DNA from: a virus
Lineage: Duplodnaviria; Caudoviricetes
Virus record (IMG/VR): IMGVR_UViG_3300005573_000075
Location: 1 to 64,000 of that record
Length of the DNA: 64,000 nt
Reading direction: 5' to 3' (one strand)
Shown here one piece after another: positions 5,478 to 26,260 of this stretch. The notes under the pieces were generated by a model that ran no database searches, was not told the DNA's origin, and saw nothing but the letters and a program-made list of their open reading frames with translations. How positions within the stretch are numbered: the stretch's first letter is position 1; each line of letters begins with the position of its first letter. A program made the position numbers and the translations under genes.

Positions 5478-5502
5478 ATGACAATGAAGGGTATATATAA
5501 TA
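5478..5502 (+). promoter_or_regulatory. conserved phage promoter motif upstream of tnpB copy 1
   Basis: ATGACAATGAAGGGTATATATAATA, versus ATGACAATAAAGGGGATATATAATA upstream of virion-module genes. Confidence 0.75.
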
Positions 5503-5505
5503 GAT

Positions 5506-6606
5506 ATGGTAAGATTAACCTATCATTGTAATTTAAAAGGTAATAAAGAGAAACTAGCGTTTCTGGAACAACAATATAAATATGCTCAAATAATAGCTAG
5601 GTATTACCTTTGGTATATCAAATCAACTAAAGAGTATAGGAAATCAGAAATACATAAAGTTACATATGAAAAAATAAGAACTAAGTATCCATTTCTGTAT
5701 TCTAAATTAATACAACATATAAGGAATAAAGTGTTAGCTTCAGTAAAAGCTAAAAAACTCTATAAAGTCAAAAAATTAAATATTCCTCTAATTTTTGATT
5801 ACCAAAATTTTGATATAGGATTTAAAGAAGGTTACTATAATGCATGGATAAGATTGTGTAAAAATAATTATCCCCTAGAAGGTTTAAGAACGATTAATAA
5901 GTTAAAAGAAATAGTAAGTATAAAAGAAATTCAAATAAAAAAGATAAATAATGCATGGAGAATATACTTCATATGTGAGGTAAAAGAAAACAATAATGTT
6001 AAAGGAAATCAGAGGTTAGGTATAGATATCAACATAAAAAATATAACCCTTTCAAACAATAAAAGATTCAATCTAAAACAATATGTTCATAAAAAAATAG
6101 AATACCGAAAACATAAACAAAAAGATAAAATAATAAGATACTCTAAAGATTTCTTCCATAAGTTGACTTCTGAGTTAGTTAAGTATCTAATAGAAATGGG
6201 AGGTTCTCAAATTATATTAGAGAACCTAACTAATATCAGAAAGTCAAGTTCTAGAAAAGAGGGAACATCTAAAGGGAAAACTGTAAACTACCTAATAAAC
6301 AATGTCTTTCCCTATAAGATGTTTCAAAGTTTTCTAGAGTATAAATGTAAATTAAATGGGCTAGAAGTTAAATATATCAACCCTAAAAATACTAGTAAAA
6401 CTTGTGAATGTGGATCCATGGATACTAATAGACCTAAACAAAGTCTATTAGTATGCAATACTTGTGGAAGAAAGATGAATGCGGATTTAAATGGAGCTAT
6501 AAACATCTTGAAGTTTTCACTTCAAGATGGGTTACTGAGTCATTCTAACCAGTCTGAGCTCCTTAAACAAACAGACAAGCCCTCGGCCTTAGCCAGGGGT
6601 AGATGA
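5506..6606 (+). CDS. tnpB: TnpB RNA-guided nuclease
   Basis: RuvC-I LGIDIN, RuvC-II IILENL, zinc ribbon SKTCECG..CNTCG, RuvC-III NADLNGAINI; catalytic D/E/D intact. Confidence 0.95.
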   Translation: MVRLTYHCNLKGNKEKLAFLEQQYKYAQIIARYYLWYIKSTKEYRKSEIHKVTYEKIRTKYPFLYSKLIQHIRNKVLASVKAKKLYKVKKLNIPLIFDYQNFDIGFKEGYYNAWIRLCKNNYPLEGLRTINKLKEIVSIKEIQIKKINNAWRIYFICEVKENNNVKGNQRLGIDINIKNITLSNNKRFNLKQYVHKKIEYRKHKQKDKIIRYSKDFFHKLTSELVKYLIEMGGSQIILENLTNIRKSSSRKEGTSKGKTVNYLINNVFPYKMFQSFLEYKCKLNGLEVKYINPKNTSKTCECGSMDTNRPKQSLLVCNTCGRKMNADLNGAINILKFSLQDGLLSHSNQSELLKQTDKPSALARGR

Positions 6607-6625
6607 TCAAAATTCATAATGGATT
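6480..6625 (+). ncRNA. predicted omegaRNA/reRNA plus about 18-nt flanking guide, copy 1 (5' boundary approximate)
   Basis: Stems GGTTA/TAACC, GTCTG/CAGAC and the right-end hairpin; TnpB guide RNAs are known to overlap the tnpB 3' end and read into the flank. Confidence 0.6.
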
Positions 6626-7015
6626 ACTGAAAATTTTGAGATAGCAAGGAACCAAGGCAACTATAGGAATATTATTCGCTAATCTTGCTTCAATGCCTTT
6701 GGATATTATGGTTTTTTCTTGTTCACTAACATTATACCCTTTCAAAGTACTTGCAATATAAAAATTGAATGGATCAATATTTTGAAGGTTTATTTTAAAC
6801 TTATATTTTTTCCCATTAATTGTTTTGGCATATTTTTCAATTTGGCCCAAAGCTTCTTGTGCAGGTTGATTATCATAGCGAGCAGAATTAACAAGTTTGA
6901 CTAACCGTAATCCAATAGCTTTTAATTCCTTCATAGAAATTTTTCTAATTGAAGGCAATGGCGTAATTTCTATCACAACAATAGGTACCATAAGTTTAAT
7001 TTTTACGAATTGCAT
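6614..7015 (-). CDS. hypothetical protein (133 aa)
   Basis: RBS GGAGGAG; preceded by both promoter types. Confidence 0.7.
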   Translation of the reverse strand: MQFVKIKLMVPIVVIEITPLPSIRKISMKELKAIGLRLVKLVNSARYDNQPAQEALGQIEKYAKTINGKKYKFKINLQNIDPFNFYIASTLKGYNVSEQEKTIISKGIEARLANNIPIVALVPCYLKIFSNPL

Positions 7016-7036
7016 TTTTCTCCTCCAGTCGTGTTC

Positions 7037-7061
7037 TATTTATTATCCCTGATATTGTCAC
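7037..7061 (-). promoter_or_regulatory. conserved phage promoter motif (variant)
   Basis: Minus strand GTGACAATATCAGGGATAATAAATA with an upstream A tract. Confidence 0.65.
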
Positions 7062-7071
7062 TTATTTTTTT

Positions 7072-7101
7072 AGCATAGCAAAAAAAATTGATACTTGTCA
7101 A
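7072..7101 (-). promoter_or_regulatory. sigma70-like promoter for the leftward operon
   Basis: Minus strand TTGACA-N18-TATGCT with extended -10 TG. Confidence 0.6.
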
Positions 7102-7157
7102 CCAAATTTTTTTTTGGCCCGACGGGAGGTGAGGAAAAAAATTAAAGTCTCATCCTG

Positions 7158-7361
7158 AAAGTGTGGAAAAATTTCCACACTTTTCGCAATTAATTACTTT
7201 TATATATATTTTGTAAACTAAATTATTTTAAAATAATTTGGACCCTGTAACCCCCTTAAAATTGCGATTTTAAGGGGTTTGGGAGGGTGGATGGTAGGTG
7301 TATACCTTTTTTTAAGAAAACTTAAAATTAGCCCTAAAAGGTTTGCAATATCACAATATTT
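7158..7361. repeat. degenerate direct repeat A (copy B at 7960-8187)
   Basis: Both copies carry, in order, palindrome AAAGTGTGGAAA-NN-TTTCCACACTTT, hairpin CCCCTTAAAAT-TGYG-ATTTTAAGGGG and ATACCTTTT...AAAAGGTTT. Confidence 0.85.
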
Positions 7362-7754
7362 TCCTTGTCCTGCCAAGCGCTTACGCTCGGCAGGGGAGGG
7401 TATACAAAAGCTCATGTTAATTAATAGAAAAATGATATATATATATAACACAGAATATTAGGAAAGGGTATGAATCTGATCTGGTAGTTTTGCTTTCTTG
7501 CAGAAGATTCATACCCTCTATTATTCACCCCAAACTTGTTTTGGGGTTTGGAAAATTCATAAAATGAATTTTCCTTGGATTAACCTGTTTTATAAAAAAT
7601 GCTTAAAAAATAAGCATTTTTTTCTTCACCTTTGATTTTTCAAGGAAGTAATAGGTATATCATCTAGCATTAGTTAACATCTTACGATGTTAACATTTGA
7701 TGATATACCTGATACTTAGAACAGTATATATATGGGATAGTAAGTAATAAAAAT

Positions 7755-7826
7755 AGTAATAAGGTTAAAGATAAGGTTAGTAATAAGGTTAAAGATAAGG
7801 TTAGTAATAAGGTTAAGGATAAGATA
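7755..7826 (+). repeat. 3 x 24-bp tandem repeat AGTAATAAGGTTAAAGATAAGGTT (12-bp sub-period), iteron-like
   Basis: Read directly; the third copy is slightly degenerate. Confidence 0.9.
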
Positions 7827-7844
7827 AAGGGGGGTATGGGGGGG

Positions 7845-7941
7845 AAAAGAAAAGGAAAAGGAAAAGAGGAAGGAAAAGAAAAAGGGAAAGAGAAAGGGAA
7901 AGAGAAAGGGAAAGAGAAAGAAAAAGAGAGAGAAAGGAAAA
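7845..7941 (+). repeat. uninterrupted purine tract with 3 x GGGAAAGAGAAA
   Basis: About 95 nt of only A/G after GGGGGGTATGGGGGGG. Confidence 0.9.
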
Positions 7942-8000
7942 CCAAGTCATTTTTCCCTTAAAAGTGTGGAAATTTTTCCACACTTTTTTGCTGGCATATA

Positions 8001-8046
<46 letters not shown>

Positions 8047-8253: not shown

Positions 8254-8278
8254 GTGACAATAAAGGGGATAAATAATA
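8254..8278 (+). promoter_or_regulatory. conserved phage promoter motif
   Basis: GTGACAATAAAGGGGATAAATAATA, about 30 nt before the first rightward gene. Confidence 0.8.
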
Positions 8279-8309: not shown

Positions 8310-10088
8310 ATGTTGCACGAATTCTTTTTCAAATATTTACTTCAACATTCAGGTTTGAAGAATTTAGTATATGCCTATCTAAGAATTAAACACCCAGATA
8401 TTTTTTCAAAATATTTTTCAGATATACCTATAGACGAGCCTACGGCAAGAAAATTATACGATACTATTCCTGAGAGATTAGGCGAAGTATTTAAATCAAT
8501 TATTTTTTCTATAACCGGTGGAGAAAGTGAAGAGAGTGAAGAAGGTAAAAAAAGCAGAAGTGATTTTTTTGAAAAATACAAAACATATATAGAAGGGCAG
8601 AGTAACGAATTAACCGATGCACAAATTAAAGAATTGGAGGGCGCCAAAGGAGCTATAATGGAATTAACTCCCAAAAGTTTTAATTATGTAATTAATATGA
8701 TTAGGCAAGATAAGTCTTACGCGTATGGGATAATAGCGTATTTAGCGTATATGCTTTTAGATGACTTAGGAATTACCAGGGAAGAAGAAACCTTAGATAT
8801 CTCCCAAAGTTTAGGGGATTTTTTATTGGAATTTATAAAAACTCATAATGATTATCGTGCTAAAAAAATAGATGACGCAATAGAAAAAATATTACAATCA
8901 TCTGACCCGGAAGAGCTGAAATTAAACAGAATAAAAGATATATTAGATATTGTTAAAGCACCCCAGTTTTTTTCTATTTCACACATTATAGAAAATAAAC
9001 GAATAGATGAATATTTTGAAAGTGTTCCTAAATTTTTTGAATATATAAGTAAAAATATGCAGCGAATAGTAAGTGAATATTTTGATAGTAAATTAAATGA
9101 TATTTTCAATGAAATGAAAAAAGAAATTGCAAAAAGAGATATACCTGAAAATGAATTAATGAAAGACTTAATAATGCAAACAGGGTGGAAAACATATTTT
9201 TCTATGCACGCGCAAACTTCCCAAATAAGTTATTTTTTAAATAACATTTACAGTTATGTATTTAAAGATATTTTTGGATTCAATATGGATGATATAGCTC
9301 AATCATTATCCAAAATAGCTTCAAATAATTTTGTTGATACAGATAAAATTGCAAAAGAAATTATTAATGATGTGTCTATGAGGGCAGATACTATTTTGCA
9401 AAATCATCTTTTACAATTGTTCGGTTTAAGTGAGCAACAAAAAGATCAATTGTATTCAATACTGGAAGAGGGAATAAAAGAAGTTTTAAAATATCTTTCA
9501 GAATCGGAAGAAATAGATAAAAACGATATTTTTTCGGACCTTATATCTCAGTTTAAAATTGGCGAATTGGATTCTGAAACTTCAAAATTTTTTCATACTA
9601 TTGCGAATAAAATATGGGATAGTATTCCTAAATTGAGAAAAGGTATTGTAGATTATCTGCAAGAACAGTTGCAGAAAAATAAATATTTGAAAACATTTTT
9701 AGAAGAAGAATATCTATTAGATTCTGAAGGGATAACAGAATTTATTGAATTTATAATAAAAGACTTGCTTTATAGTGATATAAAAGAAGGGCTTAGCAAT
9801 ATCTTAAAAAAGAGTATAAAAGAGCATATGAGTTTCTTAACGGAAGAGAATATAGAAAAATTGGCCAATATGTTAGAAAATATTATTAGCGGTATAGCGG
9901 AAGATTATGAAAAAATAGAACCTTCAGAGGCGGAGGCACAGTATTTTGAAAATATAAAACCAGGCGTATATGACGAGGAAGCGGAATATCGTCATTTGTG
10001 GAAACCTACTGAAGAATGGCGTTTTCTTTCTCCTGAAAAAGAAGAAGAGAAGTTAAAGGAGGATGAATATGGCCACATTTTCTTTTAA
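8310..10088 (+). CDS. hypothetical acidic alpha-helical protein (592 aa), possible internal virion protein
   Basis: Long ORF, RBS GAGGAG, no recognisable motif. Confidence 0.7.
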   Translation: MLHEFFFKYLLQHSGLKNLVYAYLRIKHPDIFSKYFSDIPIDEPTARKLYDTIPERLGEVFKSIIFSITGGESEESEEGKKSRSDFFEKYKTYIEGQSNELTDAQIKELEGAKGAIMELTPKSFNYVINMIRQDKSYAYGIIAYLAYMLLDDLGITREEETLDISQSLGDFLLEFIKTHNDYRAKKIDDAIEKILQSSDPEELKLNRIKDILDIVKAPQFFSISHIIENKRIDEYFESVPKFFEYISKNMQRIVSEYFDSKLNDIFNEMKKEIAKRDIPENELMKDLIMQTGWKTYFSMHAQTSQISYFLNNIYSYVFKDIFGFNMDDIAQSLSKIASNNFVDTDKIAKEIINDVSMRADTILQNHLLQLFGLSEQQKDQLYSILEEGIKEVLKYLSESEEIDKNDIFSDLISQFKIGELDSETSKFFHTIANKIWDSIPKLRKGIVDYLQEQLQKNKYLKTFLEEEYLLDSEGITEFIEFIIKDLLYSDIKEGLSNILKKSIKEHMSFLTEENIEKLANMLENIISGIAEDYEKIEPSEAEAQYFENIKPGVYDEEAEYRHLWKPTEEWRFLSPEKEEEKLKEDEYGHIFF

Positions 10089-10728: not shown

Positions 10729-11197
10729 AAAAGATTTTGAAAAATACATAACTGATCCGTTACCTGATGATTTATTTGTTTTTGGGTTTGATATTGATGA
10801 AAAAAATTGGGTAAGATATCGAGTGTCAGGAGTGCAATTCATTTCTAGCGCTAATTGTTACATTTTAAGCACTACATATTATAGATTGATTGCACCAAAA
10901 GATGCATATGTTCTAACGACAACATTGCCTATTATGTATTTATCTCAATTTGATAGGTACATGGCAAGGAAAGTAAAAATAAGAAATACTTATTTAGGAA
11001 TGCCTTTAATAGCTTATTTCCCCTCTGTGGATAAAGAAGGGGGTAAATTAATAAACGCGGTGACGTTTTTTATAGATTTTACTAAAGTTTTAGTGATGTC
11101 TTCTAATCCCTCTGATTTTGGAGTTATCTTGACATTAGATACTCCAAAACCAGATGCAAATTATGCATTAGACGGGGTTTTATTTTCAGCACAATAA
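10709..11197 (+). CDS. hypothetical protein (162 aa)
   Basis: Overlap-coupled on both sides. Confidence 0.65.
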   Translation: MITATSKKDFEKYITDPLPDDLFVFGFDIDEKNWVRYRVSGVQFISSANCYILSTTYYRLIAPKDAYVLTTTLPIMYLSQFDRYMARKVKIRNTYLGMPLIAYFPSVDKEGGKLINAVTFFIDFTKVLVMSSNPSDFGVILTLDTPKPDANYALDGVLFSAQ

Positions 11198-12936
11198 TGG
11201 ACAATAAATTAATTTTTCCAGAACAAATAAACATTGAAAATTTAGTTAAAAAATTTTTCCAAGAATCAGTTCAAGAAGGGCTAAATACTATTTTTTCAAA
11301 AGAATATAGTTTGGAATATTTTGAAACTAAAGATTTGCTTACATTTGAACAATTTTGTGTCTCTAAGGATCACATGGATATTGTATTGAGTGACAGACAA
11401 TTAAAAGCGGCTAAGGTGATGCTAGGAGATGATATATATAAAATTTTTGATAACAAGAAAGAACTCGCTATATTGGTTTGGGGTAAAGGCAGTGGTAAAG
11501 ATTTAATTTCTATTTTGATATTATGCTATGTAGTATATTTGCTTTTGAATATGAAATCTCCTCAAAAATATTTTAAAATGCCTGAGTCTGAGTGGTTGGA
11601 TTGTGTAAATACCGCTCCTTCCGCTCAAAATGCGGCTACAGTCTTTTTTGAGAAATTGAGACAAAAAATATTGAGATGGAAATGGTTATTTTCTAAATAT
11701 GCGGTAAAACATTCTGGTGCGTTTATATCTCAAATAAAGCCAGATCCAGGTCAACAACATGTTGTGATAACTAAAGATGGTATTATTTTCCCCAAGCTTA
11801 TACGATTATTATCCAGAAATAGTTCTAATGAGAGCGCAGAAGGATTGAATACCCTTGTATATATATTAGACGAAGCTAGCGCTTTTGTGGACAATAGTAA
11901 TAACAGAAATGCAGATAAGGTTTTTAAAAGCCTAAGAAGTTCTTCGGTATCCCGATTTGGCAATCGAGGTAAAGGATTTATTATTTCATATCCAAGAGAA
12001 TCAAATGATTTCACTTTAAGAATGTATAAAAAATATAAAGATAAACCGTATGTATATTCCGATCAAGCTGCGGTATGGGATGTAAAACCAGTGCATTTAT
12101 TTAGTAAGGAATTTTTTACTTTTGAAGGGTATAAAATCCCTATAGAATTTAAACATGATTTTGAGGCGGACCCTACAGACGCAAAAAAGGTATATATGGC
12201 AATTCCACCTGAAGTTGAATGTGGATTTTTTGAATTCCCGGAGAAAGTGGATAAATGCACTTCAAAAGCTACTCCGCCCATGGTGGTATTTGAAGATTTT
12301 ATATATAAAGAAAAAGTATGCAAAAGGATAGTTAATTTTGCAAATATTATCCCTTCTTATTCATATATAATAACTTTAGACTTAGGGGAAACTTCCGATA
12401 CTGCCGCATTGTCCCTCTTTCATTCGGAATATGATTCCGAACGAAAGGTCCAAATTTTTAAGCAAGATTTAGTTACAGGGTGGTCGCCGGACAGAAAGAA
12501 TAAATATACAGTCTCATTTGTTAATGTATTTGAAATTATAAAAATGTTATCGTTGAGAATACCTATTACAGGGTGCTGGTTTGATTATTGGCAGTCAGTT
12601 ACACTAGTTGAACAATTGAAAACAGCTGGTATTTTTGCGGATACATATGTCTTAAAATATTTGGATTATAGAAATTTGAAGGAGTATATATATACCGATA
12701 GAGTTGTATTGCAACCTTTTGATAAACAAATAGAAGAGTTAAAAAAATTAATTGATTTTGGTACCAGGATAGATCACCCATCAACAGGTTCAAAAGACTA
12801 TGCTGATACTATTTGTGGGGCGATAAAGATATTTATAGAAAAATATCCGTCAATTGTAAATCAGGAATCTGAATCATTAGAAGGTTCGGAGTTTGGAGAA
12901 CCTGATAATTTAGGACGGGAGGATCCATTTCTATGA
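11197..12936 (+). CDS. terL: terminase large subunit
   Basis: Walker A LVWGKGSGKD, Walker B VYILDEA, nuclease ITLDLGETSD and DHPSTGSKDYAD. Confidence 0.93.
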   Translation: MDNKLIFPEQINIENLVKKFFQESVQEGLNTIFSKEYSLEYFETKDLLTFEQFCVSKDHMDIVLSDRQLKAAKVMLGDDIYKIFDNKKELAILVWGKGSGKDLISILILCYVVYLLLNMKSPQKYFKMPESEWLDCVNTAPSAQNAATVFFEKLRQKILRWKWLFSKYAVKHSGAFISQIKPDPGQQHVVITKDGIIFPKLIRLLSRNSSNESAEGLNTLVYILDEASAFVDNSNNRNADKVFKSLRSSSVSRFGNRGKGFIISYPRESNDFTLRMYKKYKDKPYVYSDQAAVWDVKPVHLFSKEFFTFEGYKIPIEFKHDFEADPTDAKKVYMAIPPEVECGFFEFPEKVDKCTSKATPPMVVFEDFIYKEKVCKRIVNFANIIPSYSYIITLDLGETSDTAALSLFHSEYDSERKVQIFKQDLVTGWSPDRKNKYTVSFVNVFEIIKMLSLRIPITGCWFDYWQSVTLVEQLKTAGIFADTYVLKYLDYRNLKEYIYTDRVVLQPFDKQIEELKKLIDFGTRIDHPSTGSKDYADTICGAIKIFIEKYPSIVNQESESLEGSEFGEPDNLGREDPFL

Positions 12937-13161: not shown

Positions 13162-13187
13162 ATGACAATAAAGGGGATAAGATAATA
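13162..13187 (+). promoter_or_regulatory. conserved phage promoter motif
   Basis: ATGACAATAAAGGGGATAAGATAATA followed by GGAGGGAG and ATG. Confidence 0.8.
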
Positions 13188-13196: not shown

Positions 13197-15380
13197 ATGG
13201 CTTTACCTCAAAGATTAACAAATATTATTGTTGACCACATTAGGGACACCTTAATTCCTGATTTGGACAAAGTTGAGAATGTAGATATAAAAAATCAATT
13301 AATTGATGGGGTTTCTAAATTAAATATAAAAGGGACAGCCAGAGAAATAAGAGATATTGCAATATCTGTAATAGATAAAAATTTACAAATTTTAAAATCT
13401 GAGATAACTAAAGGAATACCAGATTTTCTTTTAAAATTGGAAGAGTTATTAGGAATACCAACCCCATCTTCAGATATAGTAATACCTGAAGATATTAAAG
13501 ATATAGTTAGCAAAGAAGAATACAAAAACATTTTTAAATGGGATTTATTTTTTGATGGGATTAAATCAATATATAAAGCAGCTGCGGAAGCTAAAGAAAA
13601 ATACAATAATGCAACTGTAAATGATGTTCCTGCGATATTAAATAAATTAAATCAAGAGATAGAAGGGGTTTTTAATAACTTTTTAACTGTAGCGGAAGAC
13701 CGAATTAGATTTACATTTACAATTATGTATTTACGCAATATATTAGGCTATTATATATTAAATGTTTATGATGACGAAAAACTAAAAGAAGAATTAGAAG
13801 GATTTATAAGAGAAACTGTTGCGACAGGTACAAACGCCAAAGTTGGAGTTTATTATAACCGAGATTCCAGTGATACTGTTTCATTAATTAATAGAACCTA
13901 TACAAGTATTCTTACAAGGGAGTTTATAAATAATCCAAAAGAGGCTAAATCAAAAGCGGCTAGATTAAAAACGGAAGATATTATTCGAACTTTTTTGGAA
14001 GAATATTTTAATTTAACTGGGAAAGGGTTTGAACTAGAGATAGAAAATGCGATTAATATTTTGAGGCGAAAAATAGATCATAAAATAGCTTATAATTATC
14101 TTAAATATACCCAGGCAATGGTTACATATAGTGTGGCGGAATTTTTAATTAGATTTGTAAGTGACTACTCTTTTGAAAGAAATGCAACAGGGTTTAATGA
14201 ATTTTTGGAAAAACTTAATGAATTGATTTTAGATGGTGCTAGCTCAAATATCCAAGTCAATAATATACTAAAATTAAATAAGAATCAATTTACTGATTAT
14301 GATTATTGGATTCTTTTTTATTATATAAAAGAATATTTTAGTCCCAATGAATTATCGTATTTATTAGGCCGATTATTAAAAGGGAATCAAGCCGCTATTT
14401 TAAATGATGAGCTTAAAAAGATACCAAAAGATATTTATGATTATTATTTTACTCAATGGGATTTTTTTAAAGTATTAAAATTAGACAGAATAAATGTGTT
14501 AGAATACCAATATCAAAAATTAGCTTCAACAGAGAGAGGAAAACTTTTAGAGGATTTTATAAGCCATATTCAGGCATTGTTGAAAGAGAAAGATGCGCCG
14601 TTTTTTGAAATTTTCAAGAACTCTAAAGAATTTAATTTATTGGTAAAATTGACATTACACACTATTATAACAATGCAATATGACACAGATAAAAAATTTC
14701 AAGAAGTTTATGATAAATTAAGTGGAATACAATCCACTGAATTTTTTCTTAAATTTATTGGAGCCGATAAAATTGAACAATATGTGAGAATTCTTTTTGA
14801 CAATGCCAACTTTTTAGATAAAGCGCATAAACTTTTAGAAGCTCAAAAAATAACTAGATCATTAGAATTTGATACGCTTATACCTCCGAATGAGATAGGG
14901 CCAGATCAATCATTTGGGAATATTTTAACTGCTATTAATCAATTAGCTATAGTTAGAAAAAAGCATAAAATATTAGATCCTGATGAATTAAATTATATTA
15001 AATCTATATTTGATAAAGTTAAGGATACAATACATAAATTAAAAGAAGCGTATGAAAACGGATTTAAAAGTTATTATGATTATTTGAAAAGTGTTACGCT
15101 TGGCCAAACACCGACAGGCAAGATCCAAGATATTCCGGCAGAGCTTTTTTTTATATTTGAAAGTTATATTAATTTAGTGGATAAAAAAATATACATAGAT
15201 CCCGATGTAGCAAAAATAAGGGATGTCTTGTATAATTTTACTCCAACAGTAAAGACTAGCAGTATAAAGATAGAACGAAATTCTATTTTTGATAAATTAG
15301 GTGGAATTTGGGAGATAGATAAAAATTCTACTTTTTATAAAATTAAAAGAAAACTCATGGAGGCAATATGCAAGAAATAA
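13197..15380 (+). CDS. hypothetical alpha-helical protein (727 aa)
   Basis: Long ORF with its own promoter motif and RBS. Confidence 0.7.
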   Translation: MALPQRLTNIIVDHIRDTLIPDLDKVENVDIKNQLIDGVSKLNIKGTAREIRDIAISVIDKNLQILKSEITKGIPDFLLKLEELLGIPTPSSDIVIPEDIKDIVSKEEYKNIFKWDLFFDGIKSIYKAAAEAKEKYNNATVNDVPAILNKLNQEIEGVFNNFLTVAEDRIRFTFTIMYLRNILGYYILNVYDDEKLKEELEGFIRETVATGTNAKVGVYYNRDSSDTVSLINRTYTSILTREFINNPKEAKSKAARLKTEDIIRTFLEEYFNLTGKGFELEIENAINILRRKIDHKIAYNYLKYTQAMVTYSVAEFLIRFVSDYSFERNATGFNEFLEKLNELILDGASSNIQVNNILKLNKNQFTDYDYWILFYYIKEYFSPNELSYLLGRLLKGNQAAILNDELKKIPKDIYDYYFTQWDFFKVLKLDRINVLEYQYQKLASTERGKLLEDFISHIQALLKEKDAPFFEIFKNSKEFNLLVKLTLHTIITMQYDTDKKFQEVYDKLSGIQSTEFFLKFIGADKIEQYVRILFDNANFLDKAHKLLEAQKITRSLEFDTLIPPNEIGPDQSFGNILTAINQLAIVRKKHKILDPDELNYIKSIFDKVKDTIHKLKEAYENGFKSYYDYLKSVTLGQTPTGKIQDIPAELFFIFESYINLVDKKIYIDPDVAKIRDVLYNFTPTVKTSSIKIERNSIFDKLGGIWEIDKNSTFYKIKRKLMEAICKK

Positions 15381-16570: not shown

Positions 16571-18814
16571 ATGTCTGATATAACACCTGAAGAAAAATTT
16601 AATCGCCAAGCTAGTCGGATAAAAATGTCCGGAGTTTCTGGGCGTCTTCAAGATGGGTTTACAAAGCAAGCATTTAATCTAGATGTCTTATCATCGGGAT
16701 CTGCCAATGTTACTAAGCTGCCTATAACTTATGTAGATCCAATGTTTGACCCTGTTCTTTTGATGTTCCCAAAAGAAAATTTGAAGGAATTAAATCGACG
16801 ACTTAGGCATTATTATACCTTTCATCCTATAGTAAGAAATATAATAAATCTACATTCAACATTTCCATTTAGCGACGCGGATATTCGTTGTGAGGATAAA
16901 ACTATTGAAGCGTATTGGCAATATTTGGCGGATAAACTTGATATTAATTCGATGGTAAACCAAATGAGCCATGATTACGAATTATTGGGGGAATGCCATA
17001 TTCCTGGTACGAAAGTATTAATGGCGGATAAAACATTGAAAAATGTAGAGGAAATAAAAATTAAAGATGTAGTTATAGATGGAAGTGGTTCAAAGAGTGT
17101 AGTTAAATATAGAACATCTAAAACTGTTCATCAAGAAGATCTTATAGGGTTAAGCATAGATGATAAACATTATTCCTGGATGACTAAAGAACATCCTGTA
17201 ATGGTATTGAAAGCAAATTCTTATGTTTGGGATTTGAAAAAATTATTATTAAATAAAGTGTACACTCCTTCTTTTATTTCCGCGGGGGAAATAAAAGAAG
17301 GGGATGTGGTTTTATATCCTATTAGAGCTTTTGGGTATGGGAAACCTTTAAAAGCGCCAATAGCATTTATAGAAGATCAGAAGGGCATACAATATTTTGT
17401 ATATATAATCACTTCAATAAAATATTTGAATTATTCAGGAAAAGTATATAGTATGGAATTGGAGGGTAATGAAAATACCTATATAGTGGATAGAATGTTT
17501 ACTGTCCATAATAGTTTTCATATAGGTAATTTTGATAAGAATGAATTAGAATGGAGTTCATTTATTCAATATCCTCCTGAAAATATAGAGATACATAAAA
17601 CTTATGTAGGGAATGCGGTTAAATATACTATAAAGATGGATGAAGAATTGCAAAAACTAGTCAGTTCGAGTAAAAAAGAGGATAAAGAAGTATTAGCTCA
17701 ATTAGATTCTGACGTTTTAGAATCAATAACGTCAAAAACTCCATTTCAAGTAGATGCTGAAAGAGTGATTCATTATAGTAATAAACCATCCGCATATTTA
17801 ACAAGAGGGGAATCCCCTTTAAAGGCCGCATTAAAATATTTATTATTAGAAGATAGATTATATATGTTAGCAATGACAATTGTTGATAGGCATACATTTC
17901 CTATTAAGTTATGGAAATTAGGATCAAAGGAAAAATTATGGATGCCACCTAAAAAACATTTTGATCAATTAAAAGAGCAAATAGCGGCAATGGCAGGCGA
18001 TCCTGATTATAATCTTATTTATCACGCGTTTTTAGACTTAGATATAAAAACTACTTCAACTCAGCATGAAGATATTGTAAAATGGTTTGATTGGACCCAG
18101 AAGAGGATTTTGATAGCTTTAGCGGCTAATGAGAATATGTTTGCAGAAGCAAATCCATATGCGAAGGATGCAGTAAGTATTAAACTTATAATGCACAGAT
18201 ATATGATACAACGTGCTACGGTATCTAGATTATTGAAGTATAAAGTATGGTTGCCTGTAGCTATAAAGAGAGAATTGATAAGAAAAAATCCTTCAGAAGT
18301 AAATACTGGGATAATAGATGATAAATTAAATATATCTAAATATAAAAGATATGTATTACCACAATTGTTGTGGCAACCAAATAATTTGGTTAATAACATG
18401 GCCGAAAAAGAATTTCTGTATAAACTAAGAAAAGATGGGGAGTTGCCAGCTTCTTTAATATATGATGTGTTGGGTGTAGATACGGATAAGGTTAGAGATA
18501 TGCTTGATAGAGAAGAAGGAACAATATTAGATCCTAATGTCAAGCAAGCTAAAAAAGATTCTATAAAAGATGATTCAATAAGAATAGGGATTATAGAGGG
18601 TAAAAAAATAAAAGAAGCTGTAAAAATAAAAGAGGATAAAGATAAAGAAAAAGAGGATAAAAAAGGGCCTGGGAGACCGCCATTACCTGAGGGAGAAAAA
18701 ACTGAGCGGGAACATGCTATGATACCTAATGAGATAGTGCCGCCGAGGGAAAAATTGACTGAAAAGGAAGAATTGCCCGCTCCAAAGGGGGAAGAACTTC
18801 CACCTTTGGAATAA
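16571..18814 (+). CDS. portal protein containing a mini-intein
   Basis: Between terminase and prohead protease; portal-like segments HPIVRNIINLHS, YELLGE/SF, IHYSNKPSAYLTRGESPL; charged C-terminal tail. Confidence 0.8.
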   Translation: MSDITPEEKFNRQASRIKMSGVSGRLQDGFTKQAFNLDVLSSGSANVTKLPITYVDPMFDPVLLMFPKENLKELNRRLRHYYTFHPIVRNIINLHSTFPFSDADIRCEDKTIEAYWQYLADKLDINSMVNQMSHDYELLGECHIPGTKVLMADKTLKNVEEIKIKDVVIDGSGSKSVVKYRTSKTVHQEDLIGLSIDDKHYSWMTKEHPVMVLKANSYVWDLKKLLLNKVYTPSFISAGEIKEGDVVLYPIRAFGYGKPLKAPIAFIEDQKGIQYFVYIITSIKYLNYSGKVYSMELEGNENTYIVDRMFTVHNSFHIGNFDKNELEWSSFIQYPPENIEIHKTYVGNAVKYTIKMDEELQKLVSSSKKEDKEVLAQLDSDVLESITSKTPFQVDAERVIHYSNKPSAYLTRGESPLKAALKYLLLEDRLYMLAMTIVDRHTFPIKLWKLGSKEKLWMPPKKHFDQLKEQIAAMAGDPDYNLIYHAFLDLDIKTTSTQHEDIVKWFDWTQKRILIALAANENMFAEANPYAKDAVSIKLIMHRYMIQRATVSRLLKYKVWLPVAIKRELIRKNPSEVNTGIIDDKLNISKYKRYVLPQLLWQPNNLVNNMAEKEFLYKLRKDGELPASLIYDVLGVDTDKVRDMLDREEGTILDPNVKQAKKDSIKDDSIRIGIIEGKKIKEAVKIKEDKDKEKEDKKGPGRPPLPEGEKTEREHAMIPNEIVPPREKLTEKEELPAPKGEELPPLE
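16994..17512 (+). mobile_element. mini-intein (173 aa, no homing endonuclease)
   Basis: Block A CHIPGTKVLMAD, block B TKEHP, block F VYSMELEG, block G TVHN followed by +1 Ser. Confidence 0.92.
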
Positions 18815-18819: not shown

Positions 18820-18844
18820 GTGACAATAAAGGGGATATATAATA
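18820..18844 (+). promoter_or_regulatory. conserved phage promoter motif
   Basis: GTGACAATAAAGGGGATATATAATA; ATG 4 nt after TATAAT. Confidence 0.8.
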
Positions 18845-18847: not shown

Positions 18848-19042
18848 ATGGATAACTATTTCAAAACTTTAAGCGATAGGGTGGAATATCACAAGACTGC
18901 AATTGAAAGAGAAGTAACTAATTTGGTTAGTATTGGATATGACCACCCAGAAGTGGAACATTTGCTAATGGACACTATGGAAAAGATTTTTCAAACATTG
19001 AACGAATTGAAAGAGAAAATAGGAGAAAAAGATCATGTTTAA
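18848..19042 (+). CDS. hypothetical protein (64 aa)
   Basis: Directly follows the promoter motif. Confidence 0.6.
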   Translation: MDNYFKTLSDRVEYHKTAIEREVTNLVSIGYDHPEVEHLLMDTMEKIFQTLNELKEKIGEKDHV

Positions 19043-19205: not shown

Positions 19206-20468
19206 ATGTTTAAAAAATTTGGAATTTCAAATGTGATAGATGTCTATCAGACAAAAGAGGAAATTGATAATATTTCTAAAATATGGAAGAACATTATAGG
19301 ATATTCAAATACAGAAACCATAAAAATAAACGATAAAGAATTTCCTTTTTTACCTGACAGATTTTTATATTATAGGGCTAGAGCTATCACCGCTGATGCT
19401 GTGAACCAAAATGGGGATAGATTTCCTCATGAAGAAATAAAGAAAAGTTATAATACTTTTATTGGGAAAGGGGTATATTATAATCATAATAGTCAAGATC
19501 CTAATAATGCGTTTGGAATAATTTTGGACGCAGTATATACCCCTGTTATTTATGGGGATACATATGATGATAAATATGTAGAGATATTGGCAGCTATAGA
19601 CAAACAATTAATGAATGAGAAATATCCTCAATTATTAGATTATATTATATCAAAAAGAGTTACCGGTACCAGTATGGGAACATTAGCGGCAGAGGCAGTA
19701 TGCTCTGTATGCGGGAATAGAGCTACAAATTATAACAATTTATGCGTTCATATGCATCCTCAAAGCCCGTTATATTGTAAAGCTAAAAAGGTTTTTGGTA
19801 ATTTAGCGTATGAGGATAATTATGGGCTTACATTCATAGAAGATAGTATAGTATATGTTCCCGCGGACCAAACAGCGCATATATTGGAAATATATGCCAA
19901 CAAGAGTATAAAATCGGATTTTAAACCTTTAATAGATTTATTTAGTAAGTATTCTTCTATAATGAGTAATAAAGAAGTAAAATTAAAAGAATTCCCAATT
20001 AATATATATTCTGCGGAGGGAGGGAAAATGGATAAAGAACCTGAAAATCCTGAATCTAAACCGATACCAAAACCAAAAAGTAAAGATTCTGATTATACGG
20101 AAAGTTTAACTATAACTAAGCCTGAGATAGAAGATAGCACAGAAAAAATAATTGACAATAAGATACGTAGAATAATAGAGGAAGAACTTAGAAAATTGAT
20201 GGCGCCTATATTAACTAAAATAGATGAAATGATAAGACCGAAAGTTAAGATGGAGATTAGTAAAGAAGTTGATAAAGTGAAAGATAAAGTGGAGCAGGTT
20301 TTACAAACAAAGATAGAAACGCCTAAAGCGGAAGTTCCCGCTAAAACAGAAGTTCCACCTGCGGAAATAAAAGCAGCTAGCGTTGATTTTTCTAAATATT
20401 CTAGCGAGGAAAAAAAGAAATTAATATCAGTTATAGCATCTGGAGATAGTTGGACTTTTAAATTGTGA
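19206..20468 (+). CDS. prohead (capsid maturation) protease with scaffold-like C-terminus
   Basis: NQNGDRFPHEEI, YYNHN (His), GIILDA (Asp), TGTSMG (Ser), CSVCGN..CVH; located between portal and capsid genes. Confidence 0.85.
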   Translation: MFKKFGISNVIDVYQTKEEIDNISKIWKNIIGYSNTETIKINDKEFPFLPDRFLYYRARAITADAVNQNGDRFPHEEIKKSYNTFIGKGVYYNHNSQDPNNAFGIILDAVYTPVIYGDTYDDKYVEILAAIDKQLMNEKYPQLLDYIISKRVTGTSMGTLAAEAVCSVCGNRATNYNNLCVHMHPQSPLYCKAKKVFGNLAYEDNYGLTFIEDSIVYVPADQTAHILEIYANKSIKSDFKPLIDLFSKYSSIMSNKEVKLKEFPINIYSAEGGKMDKEPENPESKPIPKPKSKDSDYTESLTITKPEIEDSTEKIIDNKIRRIIEEELRKLMAPILTKIDEMIRPKVKMEISKEVDKVKDKVEQVLQTKIETPKAEVPAKTEVPPAEIKAASVDFSKYSSEEKKKLISVIASGDSWTFKL

Positions 20469-22301: not shown

Positions 22302-22306
22302 GCTTT

Positions 22307-22459: not shown

Positions 22460-23488
22460 ATGGATTTTAATCAAGTATGGAGTTATAGTAAGTCTGAATC
22501 TTGCCCGAATGTAGTGGGTTACGCGAAAGAAAGAGGAGCTAGAGCGCTTTTAGAAATGGATAAATTTGTAAAAGAAGCTTCTACCCTTTCTGAAGTTCCT
22601 TCAATAGAACAGAAGGAAGCTGCATTTGAGCAGATATACAGAAATCCGGGTCAGAATTTTCAGAGGATGGCTTTCACACTGCAGACTCCTATCAAAGATA
22701 GGAATGACTATGTTGCGGTTGGAAGAAAACTTCTGTTGACTGACGAGTTGCCGGTTGGTGAAATACCTGCCTACGACTTGGATATCCCGGAATATCCGGC
22801 TGTAATTATAGGCGCTAGAGCTAATAGTCCTTTGGTTGAATCTAATATCCAGAGGGTCACGGTTCCTACTTTCTCGATATCTATCACTACGTCAGTATTG
22901 TATGAAGATATCACGACCAGAAGATATCCCGCTTTTGACCGTGCGAAAGAACGTGCGGCAATAGCTATGGCTATTGCGGAAGATAATCAGGTATTTACGA
23001 TACTTGATGAAGCTGCAAATGCCGGTATTAATGCGGTTTATCCTAAAGCTACTGGTGGAGTTGAAAGAGGGGAATTAGCGAAAGTGCAGGGATTAATGTT
23101 AGCTAATCAGCTAGCTCCTGGTGCATGGTTAATGAATCCTGTGAGATATGGCGACATACTCACTTGGAGTACTGCTGAATTGGATCAGGTTTCTTTGAAC
23201 GTTATAGTGGAAACTGGCCAGTTTGGTGTTATCCATGGAACGAGGTTAATAACCTCTACCAGAGTGAATCCTAGAAAAGCATATCTTTGCACCACGCCGG
23301 ATAAGCTTGGCAGAATTCCTGAGAGAAAATCTGTGGAAGTCAAAGTTGTCGATTGGCCGAAAGATACCAGATGGTATATCACCGCTTGGGAACAGTTAGG
23401 TTTTGCAATACTTAACACCGCCGGTGTTATAGCTATTGATTATCAGGATGCTAATTTGACACTGCCTTCTAGATTCCCACTCTCGTAA
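22460..23488 (+). CDS. major capsid protein (HK97 fold)
   Basis: 342 aa, high-expression codon bias; RKLLLTDELPVGEIPAYD, FDRAKERAAIAMAIAEDNQVF, WLMNP, WEQLGFAILN. Confidence 0.88.
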   Translation: MDFNQVWSYSKSESCPNVVGYAKERGARALLEMDKFVKEASTLSEVPSIEQKEAAFEQIYRNPGQNFQRMAFTLQTPIKDRNDYVAVGRKLLLTDELPVGEIPAYDLDIPEYPAVIIGARANSPLVESNIQRVTVPTFSISITTSVLYEDITTRRYPAFDRAKERAAIAMAIAEDNQVFTILDEAANAGINAVYPKATGGVERGELAKVQGLMLANQLAPGAWLMNPVRYGDILTWSTAELDQVSLNVIVETGQFGVIHGTRLITSTRVNPRKAYLCTTPDKLGRIPERKSVEVKVVDWPKDTRWYITAWEQLGFAILNTAGVIAIDYQDANLTLPSRFPLS

Positions 23489-23542: not shown

Positions 23543-23560
23543 GAATTTGAAGGAGAAAAG

Positions 23561-23926
23561 ATGGCAACATATAAATATGATTCCTATAACAAATTGCATT
23601 GGTTACTAGGCAGCGATAAGTACGCTACAGAAGTAGCTAAGCAGAAATTTGAAGAGGAATTAAAAATTGGGATAGAAAAGGAGAAGGAATATTGTAAAAA
23701 GCATAATTTACCTATCTCAATGAATAAAGAAAAGCATACCCATGTATTAAATCTACTAGGAAGATGTGCTAATTTTTATGAAGTTGAAGCATTAGCTAGA
23801 TTTATATATGATGATAATCGCATCCCGGAGTATGAAGAAATAAAAAAACGGGGTTCTTTCCTAAAAAGTATTATTCCTGTAAAAGATATTTTAAGCAAGC
23901 ATAAAAACCCAAGACGAAGTTTTTGA
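23561..23926 (+). CDS. hypothetical protein (121 aa)
   Basis: RBS AAGGAG. Confidence 0.65.
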   Translation: MATYKYDSYNKLHWLLGSDKYATEVAKQKFEEELKIGIEKEKEYCKKHNLPISMNKEKHTHVLNLLGRCANFYEVEALARFIYDDNRIPEYEEIKKRGSFLKSIIPVKDILSKHKNPRRSF

Positions 23927-23937
23927 AGGGAGGGGAA

Positions 23938-24537
23938 ATGAAATATATTAATAAATCTGGCTTGAAAATATATAGTGAAACATACCAAAAAGTAATATTG
24001 CCAAATGAAGAAATAGAAATAAAAGAGGATAATTTAGGAGATTTAGCAGATGCAGTGCGCCAAAATTATTTAATTAAAGTTTTACAGAATCAATCACAAA
24101 CTAATCCACAATCTACTTCAGGGAAGAAAAAAATAAAAATGATAGTTAAACCATATACAAACCCTGGTAAGCAGACTCTAATTGAAGCGTATGAAAATAA
24201 AGGTGGGGTTAGAGATGCTTTATTTCATACAAGAGTTATTATAGGAAACAGGGAACCTATTTTAGATAATCCAAACGATGATCCTTCCATAAGTGAGGTA
24301 GAAGCAAAAAAATTGTTAAATTCCATAAAAAAAATGGAAGAAGGTTATATTGATGAAGAAGTATGGCGAATAAAAAATACTATGGAAAAGAGGGAATTTA
24401 TTGTAAATGCTAATCAAGAGCAATTAAATACAATAAAAAAATTTGAAGCTAGCCCTTTTTTATTAAATTTAATATATGGTAGGGAAGAACAATTGCGGTT
24501 AACTCAGGAGATAAAAAATGACGACGATAACAAATGA
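23938..24537 (+). CDS. hypothetical head-associated protein (start revised to 23938)
   Basis: GGAGGGG precedes ATG 23938. Confidence 0.65.
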   Translation: MKYINKSGLKIYSETYQKVILPNEEIEIKEDNLGDLADAVRQNYLIKVLQNQSQTNPQSTSGKKKIKMIVKPYTNPGKQTLIEAYENKGGVRDALFHTRVIIGNREPILDNPNDDPSISEVEAKKLLNSIKKMEEGYIDEEVWRIKNTMEKREFIVNANQEQLNTIKKFEASPFLLNLIYGREEQLRLTQEIKNDDDNK

Positions 24538-25015
24538 AAAACTAAGAATAAGGGTATATCATAGGACAGTGGAAGACATTATAATTTTATGGTCATTTAA
24601 ATATTTAGATGATGACCAAAAAAATAATATCCAAATATTTTTAAATGGTTCACCGGTGAAATGCGCTGTTACTTATAATGATAAAAGTAAAAAAGATATA
24701 GAAGATTCCACAGTTGTATGCGTGATTGATCATAAACTTAATAATATTTCCGCATATAAATCATATACATTTGATATTATATTAGGTGAAAAAAATGTAA
24801 TTAATATAAAACTTAATGTTTTAGAATACGGCAGTTTACCCGCATACGATAAAGATAATAAAAAATCCAGAGTACATTTGATGGGATATGATAATAAAGA
24901 AAAACAATGGGGACGAGTTAATACTATAAAAAAAGGTGAGATTAATACTTTCCCTGTGGTTATACTTAATGTAGACGAACTTGCAGATAAGATAGTCGAA
25001 AAATTGAAAAAATAA
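24518..25015 (+). CDS. hypothetical protein (165 aa)
   Basis: RBS AGGAG, overlap-coupled. Confidence 0.65.
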   Translation: MTTITNEKLRIRVYHRTVEDIIILWSFKYLDDDQKNNIQIFLNGSPVKCAVTYNDKSKKDIEDSTVVCVIDHKLNNISAYKSYTFDIILGEKNVINIKLNVLEYGSLPAYDKDNKKSRVHLMGYDNKEKQWGRVNTIKKGEINTFPVVILNVDELADKIVEKLKK

Positions 25016-25025
25016 TGTCCCAAAA

Positions 25026-26108
25026 ATGGTGATTAAAAATAAAAACAATGAATTAGCTAAGTTGGTTCAAGATTGGAAAAATCAGCATGAAATGTATTCT
25101 TATACATTAGAAGATTTTGTAGAGGAATACAAAGGGGATAATTTTTTTTTAACTTATAAAGTTGATGGTGAATTAACAGGGTTTCATTATAAAAATGGGA
25201 AGACTATTCTTTCTACTAAAAGTGGGATATTAAAAACTGATTTTATAATATCTAAAGAATTAGAAAAATTATTAGCTGATTATACAGAAGTTATAGGTAT
25301 AGGGGAATTATACGCTGTTGATGAAAACGGTAAAATGCTACCTTATACTAAATCAGCTTCTATTATAAGAAAACCTTCCCCTGAAACTGAGAATCAATTG
25401 CGATATTTAATTTTTGATATATTTTCTATTAATGGAAAAAAAATAAAAGATACCGTTGAAAATAAAGTTGATACAATAAATAATATTTTTAAAAATTCAA
25501 TCTATATCCAACCATTAAAATTTAAAGAATCAAATATAGACGATTTAGAAAAAGAATGGGAAAAGGTAGAACAAGGCACATATGAAGGTTTTGTAATTAT
25601 AGATAAGGATAATAATTATATTAAAATAAAGCCGATTCTTACATTTGATTTAGCGGTTATTTTTGTAGAAATAAGCAATACACATCCTGATATGATGGGT
25701 GCGCTGGGGTTAGCTTTTAAGGATAAAAACGATAACTTTTATTTTGCGGGGAAAGTGGGTACCGGATTTTCTCAAAAAGATAGAATACAATGGTTAAATA
25801 TTGCAAAAAAAGATAAAATAAAACAAGAAGATAGTATTATATGGATATATCCTTCTTATGTAGTAGAAGTGGAAAGTATGGGTATTAATTCAAGAGAAAC
25901 AGAAGTATATGATACAGGTTTGAATTTTATTAAAAAGGATATAGGATATATATTAAGGCAGCCAAGATTTAAACAAATTAGAGAAGATAAATCACCTTTA
26001 AATAAAGAAGATGTAAGAATTTCACAAGTACCAGGGTATAAATATAGTACATTAAAATCTACTTTAATTAAAAATTCTTTTTGGATAAAATATTCAAAAG
26101 AAAGATGA
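25026..26108 (+). CDS. ATP-dependent DNA ligase (LigD/LigC-like ligase plus OB domain)
   Basis: Motifs I TYKVDGE, III GELYA, IIIa YLIFDI, IV EGFVI, V IKIKP, OB-domain GKVGTGFS, VI LRQPRFKQIREDK. Confidence 0.95.
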   Translation: MVIKNKNNELAKLVQDWKNQHEMYSYTLEDFVEEYKGDNFFLTYKVDGELTGFHYKNGKTILSTKSGILKTDFIISKELEKLLADYTEVIGIGELYAVDENGKMLPYTKSASIIRKPSPETENQLRYLIFDIFSINGKKIKDTVENKVDTINNIFKNSIYIQPLKFKESNIDDLEKEWEKVEQGTYEGFVIIDKDNNYIKIKPILTFDLAVIFVEISNTHPDMMGALGLAFKDKNDNFYFAGKVGTGFSQKDRIQWLNIAKKDKIKQEDSIIWIYPSYVVEVESMGINSRETEVYDTGLNFIKKDIGYILRQPRFKQIREDKSPLNKEDVRISQVPGYKYSTLKSTLIKNSFWIKYSKER

Positions 26109-26235
26109 TTTTTAATAGATGAAAATACTGCTATTTTAATAAAGAATAAAGGTGTAAATATTCCTTATAATTATAAATTAAACTCCTTCTAAAACCCACG
26201 GTTTTAACCGTGGGATACAGAAGGGTAAAAAATAA

Positions 26236-26260
26236 ATGACAATGAAGGGTATATATAATA
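26236..26260 (+). promoter_or_regulatory. conserved phage promoter motif upstream of tnpB copy 2
   Basis: ATGACAATGAAGGGTATATATAATA; ATG 4 nt after TATAAT. Confidence 0.75.

Follow-up and report, generated by a model that had tools for sequence, protein, structure and literature searches.

The locus described here raises the question of how an RNA-guided nuclease gene that resides in a phage genome is switched on, and whether it uses a promoter of the phage itself. It lies in a 64-kb stretch of DNA (hereafter the window) that comprises bases 1-64000 of an IMG/VR virus record of 89,780 bp with a GC content of 31%, for which CheckV gives a completeness of 100%. The phage has a resident lineage of non-autonomous, tnpA-less TnpB/omega-RNA elements of the IS200/IS605 type (IS, insertion sequence). 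The initial annotation of the window had placed two tnpB genes of such an element behind a promoter motif of the phage's own virion genes. Both genes do encode TnpB, but the total is three full copies, the third of which is found outside the window. Moreover, by sequence comparison, the segment between the left-end hairpin and the ATG of tnpB is remodelled into a motif that is found at nine sites of the phage genome.

A nine-site motif shared by the phage and its elements

The motif consists of 24 nucleotides (nt) behind an A-tract, AAAAAATAA-[AG]TGACAATAAAGGGGATATATAATA, and its parts follow each other in the order A-tract, TGACAAT, AAAGGGG and ATATATAATA. It occurs at exactly nine sites in the 89,780-bp genome. 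Six of them precede phage genes, namely the terminase, portal, head and tail-side operons and one small gene, and three precede intact tnpB genes, two within the window and the third at 87462. The sites in the window, with the open reading frames (ORFs) behind them, are as follows.

5478..5502, plus strand: motif in IS copy 1; the ATG of tnpB follows 4 nt after TATAAT (6 nt after TATATA), without a Shine-Dalgarno sequence
26236..26260, plus strand: motif in IS copy 2, called by the exact 25-mer and the matrix score
8254..8278, plus strand: motif site that opens the plus-strand block; ORF 8310-10088 and the terminase-like gene 11197-12936 follow
13162..13187, plus strand: motif site with a spacer 1 nt longer, before ORF 13197-15380 and the portal gene
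18820..18844, plus strand: motif site before ORF 18848-19042 and the genes for the head protease and the major head protein
29599..29623, plus strand: motif site in the prim-pol ORF, in its 3' part; ORF 29947-30711, which is followed by neck/tail genes, starts about 320 nt downstream
59312..59336, plus strand: motif site after the tail assembly chaperone gene and before ORF 59352-59669
7037..7061, minus strand: more degenerate motif site ahead of ORF 7015-6614; a sigma-70-like TTGACA-18-TATGCT lies just upstream of it

The 25-mer ATGACAATGAAGGGTATATATAATA, reported in the initial annotation to precede both tnpB genes of the window, is indeed identical at 5478-5502 and 26236-26260. It recurs with two mismatches at 59312 and with three at 18820, the number of matches expected from 100 shuffles being 0. 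Besides 18820, the other sites listed there (8254, 13162 and 29599) were recovered with the core TGACAATNAAGGG, whose matches are at 8255, 13163 and 29600. A further and more degenerate match of the core is on the minus strand, at 7061. The third tnpB gene is preceded by ATGACAATAAAGGGGATTATATAATA, then AGGT and then the ATG. The gap of 4 nt between TATAAT and ATG, which had been noted for tnpB and for the gene at 18848, is therefore common to this gene and to all three tnpB genes (for the third, motif at 87462 and ATG at 87491).

A weight matrix was trained on four non-IS sites only, which themselves score 47-49 bits. It assigns 38.4, 34.8 and 23.6 bits to the three tnpB sites, 28.4 bits to the site at 7061 and 23.6 bits to the one at 13162. 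The best non-motif site reaches 13.4 bits and shuffled genomes do not exceed 12.5 bits, leaving a clean gap below the nine sites. We consider the sites within the elements almost certainly true members of the motif class of the phage. Two further sequences resemble the motif. A near-match, AGACAATAAAGGGGTATATAATA, is found on the minus strand at 87246, inside ORF 86880-87308, with IS copy 3 about 100 nt away; its score is lower than that of any of the nine sites, and it could be an internal promoter or due to chance. At 64282-64320, TTGACAATAAAAGATACATTAAGT in front of ORF 64317-64853 has only the 5' half of the motif and may represent another promoter variant or a weaker one.

Eight of the nine sites are intergenic, in a genome in which intergenic gaps make up about 4% of the sequence, and all nine are co-oriented with the downstream gene, 4-40 nt before its start codon or Shine-Dalgarno sequence. 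The sites are found at operon heads, including those of the divergent region at 7.0-8.3 kb, and five of the six non-IS sites fall within the packaging, head and tail region at 8-59 kb. A conserved motif thus recurs before co-oriented genes that mostly belong to one class, as is expected of a temporal-class promoter. Its earlier description as the virion-gene motif of the phage holds for a nine-site class with this bias, but only as a description of the majority, since the sites at 29599 and 7061 (minus strand) are exceptions.

Position and orientation of the sites, the TATAAT/TATATA element, the upstream A-tract and the placement at operon heads all favour a promoter, and very probably the motif is one. 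The spacer of sigma-70 promoters is 17 nt. In the motif TGACA and TATAAT are 10-12 nt apart, and because of this short distance and the approximately 24 near-invariant nt, a factor-dependent class fits better than a housekeeping sigma-70 promoter. Candidate promoters with sigma-70 geometry are found elsewhere, at 7101 (minus strand) and as an outward-facing promoter of the IS element; their presence beside motif sites in one genome suggests two promoter classes. The motif probably marks a phage-specific (middle or late) temporal class. Since the ATG follows the -10 element after 4-6 nt without a Shine-Dalgarno sequence, both at tnpB and at 18848, a leaderless mRNA is predicted. Two other readings of motif parts were rejected: an archaeal TATA-box, because transcription starting about 25 nt downstream would pass the ATG at 13197, 18848 and tnpB, and AAAGGGG as a Shine-Dalgarno sequence, because its spacing is 13-14 nt or 30-40 nt.

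The elements, their nuclease and their guide RNA

All three tnpB genes reside in full-length copies of the same element, which is about 1.2 kb long, and the flanks of these copies are unrelated. The left border consists of TTAT (at 5366, 26171 and 87348), followed by AAATTAAACTCC and a hairpin, and it is found upstream of the motif in all three copies. At the right border a hairpin is followed by GGGTAGATGA, after which homology ends (6606, 27365 and 88595). Because the left end is upstream of the motif and the flanks are unrelated, the motif is internal cargo of a mobile unit, as had been claimed; that it is an insertion target outside the element was rejected on the same evidence. The two ends of the mobile unit are also defined by a miniature element of 47 nt, in which they are joined around one hairpin. 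The parts of the elements are listed below (TAM, target-adjacent motif; aa, amino acids).

5366..5369, plus strand: TTAT, a target/TAM-like tetranucleotide that borders IS copy 1 on the left
5370..6606, plus strand: IS copy 1, tnpA-less and of the IS200/IS605 type, antisense within the minus-strand phage gene block
5380..5420, plus strand: left-end subterminal hairpin with the core CCCACGGTT / AACCGTGGG, an inverted repeat that is the same in copies 2 and 3 and in the miniature
5424..5469 (copy 3: 87406-87452), minus strand: 46-nt segment of copies 1 and 3 only, with an outward sigma-70-like promoter candidate
5506..6606, plus strand: tnpB copy 1, 366 aa, with RuvC residues D174/E239/D327 and an intact zinc finger
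6478..6606, plus strand: omega-RNA scaffold of copy 1, overlapping the tnpB 3' end; the guide would be the approximately 16-20 nt from 6607
26171..26174, plus strand: TTAT at the left border of IS copy 2
26175..27365, plus strand: IS copy 2, flanked by the ligase and prim-pol genes, both of which have the same orientation
26264..27361, plus strand: tnpB copy 2, 365 aa
27236..27365, plus strand: omega-RNA scaffold of copy 2, with the guide from 27366
87491-88591, outside the window: tnpB copy 3
513..559, plus strand: 47-nt miniature IS derivative, made up of a left-end 5' part, a single hairpin and the right-end tail GGGTAGATGA; TTAT at 509-512

Subterminal hairpins at both ends and insertion 3' of a fixed short target are the hallmarks of IS200/IS605 elements, and both are found here. 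The proposal that TTAT is the target is upheld by its conservation at the left flank of all copies, miniatures and relatives: it stands directly 5' of the left end in the three copies, in the miniature element and in the related loci L159, L161 and L163. A search for tnpA (PF01797) gave no match anywhere in the 89.8-kb genome, and the elements are thus non-autonomous, tnpB-only members of the group. One or two degenerate relics are seen at about 83457-83500 (plus strand) and at 83753 (minus strand), bringing the total in the genome to three full copies and two or three miniature derivatives. These miniatures and relics point to past mobility of the IS family inside the phage despite the absence of tnpA. 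Identity among the copies is mosaic, copies 1 and 2 being 98-100% identical in the 5' 900 nt and copies 2 and 3 up to 100% identical near the 3' end, which indicates recombination among them. From the left end to the ATG, a non-coding stretch, copies 1 and 3 are 89-93% identical, above the neutral expectation at a dS (synonymous divergence) of 0.42.

The outward candidate promoter of copy 1 consists of TTGACA (5466-5461), a spacer of 17 nt and a TG-extended TAATAT (5443-5438), the arrangement in copies 1 and 3 being TTGACA-17/18-TAATAT. It faces the flanking phage genes of the minus-strand block, in which copies 1 and 3 lie antisense, copy 3 being placed about 40 nt before the start of a gene. 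In copy 2, whose orientation is that of its neighbours, the 46-nt segment is missing, a link between segment and orientation that spans n=3 copies only. Because copies 1 and 3 are antisense to their neighbours, read-through from phage promoters cannot express their tnpB genes, which thus need a promoter of their own.

Both TnpB ORFs of the window match Pfam PF07282 (E 2e-20). An alignment of 22 TnpB family members shows no change at D174, E239 or C300/C302/C317/C320, and conservation of D327 is at least 90%; all three copies of the phage have the RuvC triad and the zinc-finger residues. The ratio of nonsynonymous to synonymous divergence (dN/dS) between the tnpB copies is 0.07-0.09 over the first 300 codons, at a dS of 0.17-0.43, and rises only where the gene overlaps the omega-RNA. 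The tnpB copies are under strong purifying selection, and their start codon is conserved across the family.

RNAalifold, applied to 10 family members, folds the last approximately 130 nt of the element into a multi-helix structure in which 13 of 29 pairs show compensatory changes. One stem reads GGTTA..TAACC in copy 1 and GGTCG..CGACC in copies 2 and 3. The predicted omega-RNA scaffold at the tnpB 3' end stops at the right end of the element, as in other OMEGA systems (short for obligate mobile element-guided activity), and the guide would thus be the flanking DNA. The 12-nt seed of each guide occurs once in the phage genome. A search of Rfam with the IS element gave no meaningful family match.

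Relatives of the lineage and the phage that carries it

A search with a profile of the TnpB clade yielded 236 loci (76 viral, 80 genomic and 80 metagenomic); the single TnpB protein had found no match in IMG/VR, and the profile did recover relatives there. The lineage occurs almost only on phage-like contigs, in line with the earlier proposal of a phage-specialised IS. Its closest relatives (loci L001/L157 with 86%, L006 with 85% and L002 with 77% aa identity) reside in phages related to the carrier and are inserted at other sites than the carrier's elements. These phages share the genes at 60837-65236 at 50-77% aa identity, and one of them, G001, additionally shares ligase, prim-pol, portal, head and tail genes with the carrier phage. 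A maximum-likelihood tree unites the three copies of the carrier in one clade (100/98), sister to L001, L006 and L002. A tnpA gene is present upstream in the relatives that are further removed (L004, L005 and L164-L167).

None of the 236 fetched loci contains TGACAATNAAGGGNAT, and an exact-pattern scan of IMG/VR for the motif gave no other contig. Within these data, the motif was thus not found in any relative of the element without a phage link, an occurrence that the initial annotation had named as an argument against its proposal. The motif is also absent from the related phages G001, L157 and L002. In 401 Patescibacteria genomes only three isolated matches with 3 mismatches were found and no repeated signal, which speaks weakly against a host-wide motif, for that phylum only, the host phylum being a guess.

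The sequences that take the place of the motif in relatives differ. L001/L157, L006 and L002 have ATCTTTAyCAACrCACGTATAATATAG before tnpB, followed by a leader with AAGGA; for the tnpB-proximal sequence of L006 no convincing second copy was found in its 124.9-kb contig. In L159 and L161 (68-71% identity) the left-end stem abuts the ATG directly. The only notable match in 185,579 species genomes, L077, has a sigma-70-type TTGACA-16-TATATT-6-ATG before its tnpB. The initial annotation had proposed to ask whether the closest host-chromosomal homologues lack the motif; L077, the nearest match available, is from a metagenome-assembled genome of Patescibacteria and only 35% identical. L077 and L163 share the geometry of -10 element and ATG with the carrier's elements while having other promoters, and a tight promoter may thus be old in the clade. 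The remodelling into the nine-site motif was most likely a single event, which took place in the common ancestor of copies 1-3. The alignment does not discriminate between insertion of an upstream box and stepwise change as its route.

Two of the related phages show features of their own. At L002:1370-2600, the same IS lineage is inserted between homologues of ORFs 64850-65236 and 65220-67322, and the carrier phage is empty at this site (the 65236/65220 junction). Between the L002 guide and the carrier's empty site the sequence has diverged (about 14 of 20 positions plus an indel), too far for cleavage to be predicted. G001 (L237-L243, 124.9 kb) has about 20 paralogous genes that start with MNISDLLKDP and form tandem clusters, for example at 45076-48211 and 90387-91635.

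By its annotation the carrier phage looks like a myovirus. The assigned genes of the window referred to above and their neighbours are the following.

11197-12936, plus strand: terminase-large-subunit-like gene (phrog_17415)
16571-18814, plus strand: portal gene (phrog_16240)
19206-20468, plus strand: head protease gene
22460-23488, plus strand: major head protein gene
25026-26108, plus strand: ATP-dependent DNA ligase gene
27382-29946, plus strand: prim-pol gene (ORF of 854 aa)
41229-42440, plus strand: tail sheath gene
52571-54070, plus strand: baseplate J gene
58704-59303, plus strand: tail assembly chaperone gene

The plus strand also has genes for a dTMP kinase and a UvsW-like helicase. 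The minus-strand block, which starts at 80.1 kb, continues past the record ends and stops at 7.0 kb, contains genes for a RuvB-like ATPase, methyltransferases, RuvC, a C1 peptidase and a Cpn60-like protein. Searches of the phage genome for a tyrosine integrase and for tRNAs were both negative. The IS element has no blastn match among GenBank phages, all tblastn matches of TnpB are at or below 36% identity, and the best match of the major head protein, in Bacillus phage G, is at 32%; matches this weak indicate a phage without a close cultured relative.

Further observations concern single regions of the genome. Residues 142-314 of the portal ORF (16571-18814) give weak matches of the Hint/intein type (E ~0.002-0.005, below the Pfam cut-offs), and the ORF may hold an intein or an intein remnant. 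An exact direct repeat of 39 nt, which encodes EEEPVEKKSMWV, is found at 27414-27452 and 29544-29582. Both copies fall within the prim-pol ORF of 854 aa, the first at its beginning, immediately to the right of IS copy 2, and the second immediately to the left of the motif site at 29599; the repeat could be explained by a second gene start or as a scar of recombination. Finally, the record ends in a run of short repeats of the TTATTATA type (89720-89780), and IMG/VR classes it as linear, without a terminal repeat.

Mechanism, alternatives and precedent

The explanation that we favour, and hold to be plausible with little confidence to spare, is that a promoter of the phage-motif class inside the resident TnpB elements times their expression and serves their copying into element-free genomes. 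The remodelled IS would have spread in the lineage by transposition with TnpA provided in trans and by gene conversion. Its motif would be read by the host RNA polymerase together with a putative phage-specific factor, the same promoter class driving the packaging, head and tail operons. The resulting tnpB mRNA would be leaderless or nearly so, and its 3' end would be the omega-RNA precursor. Nuclease and guide would thus be made on the phage's schedule, amid many replicating and recombining phage genomes. There, TnpB and omega-RNA would cut TTAT joined to the right-flank sequence, a combination that exists only without the element, either at sites left by excision or in co-infecting element-free genomes, and recombinational repair from an element-bearing genome would copy the element in. 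Without tnpA excision should be rare, and together with the purifying selection on three tnpB genes we infer that biased inheritance or competition in co-infection fits better than repair after excision. Homing or retention may be the main selected role, a proposal that we make tentatively and would place somewhat short of probable. A broader extension strikes us as rather unlikely: the TnpB lineage would be a permanent resident of related phages that has exchanged its own promoter for a stage-specific one of its carrier, acting as an RNA-guided gene drive among co-infecting phage genomes and paying "rent" through outward promoters for the displaced phage genes, which would hinder its deletion, and such mimicry would be a general adaptation of OMEGA systems to viral hosts.

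Several points weigh against the favoured explanation. Searches of the phage genome for sigma70_r2 and for the DxDGD RNA-polymerase motif were both negative, so that the proposed phage-specific factor stays hypothetical. A k-mer screen that recovers the motif in the carrier genome gives only Shine-Dalgarno words in G001, which thus appears to have no comparable phage-wide motif; that the IS copies the promoter of each phage it inhabits is therefore no demonstrated rule. For homing, no element-free sibling genome of the carrier phage was found in the collections searched. Gene conversion alone could keep the non-coding region of the copies alike. Translation of tnpB would require leaderless initiation, which is putative for this host. 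The site at 29599 is situated within an ORF, and the one at 7061 (minus strand) precedes a small gene of unassigned function. Finally, a promoter of host type is also compatible with the data.

This last point leads to a rival that we regard as improbable, in which the motif is a strong promoter type of the host, or of an alternative host sigma factor, and the IS is adapted to the host without phage-specific timing. The perfect TATAAT, the TTGACA-like TGACA and an upstream A-tract resembling an UP element would suit such a promoter, as would the lack of a detectable sigma factor or RNA polymerase gene in the phage. However, the spacer is 10-12 nt long and not 16-18 nt, and near-invariance over 24 nt across sites would be unusual for housekeeping promoters. 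Moreover, ordinary candidates of sigma-70 geometry co-exist in the same genome (one at 7101, minus strand, the other facing outward from the IS), the motif is missing from all 236 loci of IS relatives, and there is no multi-site signal in the Patescibacteria genomes, a phylum that is itself a guess for the host.

Of similarly low probability is that the elements are domesticated or mutualistic, TnpB excluding related, element-free competitor phages or the elements supplying promoters to adjacent phage genes, with selection acting at the level of the phage. The strong purifying selection on tnpB in a genome without tnpA would agree with this, as would the outward sigma-70-like promoters of copies 1 and 3, the latter about 40 nt before a gene start, and the retention-favouring promoters known to be embedded in T4 seg and mob genes (PMC2988022). 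Yet the guides are local right flanks, as in any IS, their 12-nt seeds are single and no sign of retargeting is seen. Ends, TTAT target and miniatures point instead to ordinary, recently mobile elements, and the link between 46-nt segment and orientation comprises three copies.

The direction of transfer might also be reversed, the motif having begun in the IS and the phage promoters being leftover IS fragments. Promoters carried by IS elements that activate neighbouring genes are common, and IS fragments and miniatures do occur in this genome. We nevertheless judge such an origin very unlikely, because the six non-IS sites are without adjoining left- or right-end sequence, their similarity to the element being limited to about 35 nt, and because sister and outgroup elements are all without the motif, which would require its loss in every other sampled lineage. 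Least likely of all is that the motif binds another phage function (a repressor, a replication or packaging protein or a translational regulator) and is not a promoter, its occurrence in the IS being due to regulation or recombination: the conserved stretch of about 35 nt exceeds the length required of a minimal promoter, and autorepression of the I-TevI type through operators that overlap promoters is known (PMC2988022), but the strict co-orientation and close spacing to start codons, the canonical -10 hexamer and the location of the sites where operons begin, as in the divergent region at 7-8.3 kb, all speak for a promoter, and the position of the motif as RNA, either 13-14 nt or 30-40 nt from start codons, is inconsistent with a translational operator.

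The favoured explanation combines features of several known systems. ISDra2, IS1341-type and Geobacillus TnpB elements resemble the present ones in their subterminal hairpins at left and right ends. Likewise shared with IS200/IS605 TnpB elements are the fixed tetranucleotide (here TTAT) 5' of the left end, the TnpB with RuvC and zinc-finger motifs, the omega-RNA that overlaps the tnpB 3' end, stops at the right end and takes its guide from the flank, and the miniature hairpin derivatives. Unlike them, the elements described here reside in a phage whose genome lacks tnpA, have an internal promoter region that matches the carrier's nine-site motif and not sigma-70, and are predicted to produce a leaderless mRNA. 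The 47-nt sequence at 513-559 resembles palindrome-associated transposable elements (PATEs) and other miniature IS200/IS605 derivatives in combining the outer left end, one hairpin and the right-end tail beside TTAT. It differs in being extremely short and situated in a phage genome, and its mobility is putative.

In T4 middle promoters, a MotA box lies about 12 bp upstream of a sigma-70 -10 element. The motif resembles them in geometry only: its TGACAAT box is 10-12 nt from a TATAAT-type -10 element, too close for a sigma-70 -35 element, whereas the sequence of the box is unrelated and no MotA/AsiA homologue was found here. Middle or late promoters of their own are known for intron endonucleases of T4, and T4 seg and mob genes embed promoters that favour retention (PMC2988022). 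As in I-TevI, I-TevII, I-TevIII and segB of T4, a selfish nuclease gene would here be placed directly behind a promoter of a phage temporal class, and the outward candidate promoters of copies 1 and 3 recall the promoters embedded in seg and mob. In contrast to the T4 enzymes, which are protein-guided GIY-YIG/HNH endonucleases encoded in introns or free-standing, TnpB is RNA-guided and belongs to a transposon with ends of its own. An RNA hairpin that sequesters the ribosome-binding site, as in T4, is not seen in the present elements, for which the timing is deduced from the motif. TnpB has been reported to act as a homing nuclease on vacant sites, and non-restorative homing of TnpB into co-infecting phages has been proposed in theory (PMC13565253). 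Phage-borne tnpB genes are known from cyanophage A-1(L) and Thermus Lalka phages. In the literature covered by the search, there was no report of a phage promoter inside a TnpB element. Thus, what is known is the IS200/IS605 TnpB element, and what appears to be new is the putative promoter of the carrier phage inside it.

TnpB is the ancestor of Cas12, and its gene is among the most abundant in prokaryotes. How expression of tnpB is controlled and how it is selected outside of cellular chromosomes is poorly known, and the carrier phage offers a concrete, testable example, for which its close relatives with a different promoter are natural controls. It combines three tnpB paralogues under purifying selection in a genome without the transposase with an apparent outward promoter that would compensate for the insertion. 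If confirmed, the logic of the T4 homing endonucleases would extend to RNA-guided nucleases, and a compact module of phage promoter and TnpB/omega-RNA, with TTAT as its TAM, would be available for study.

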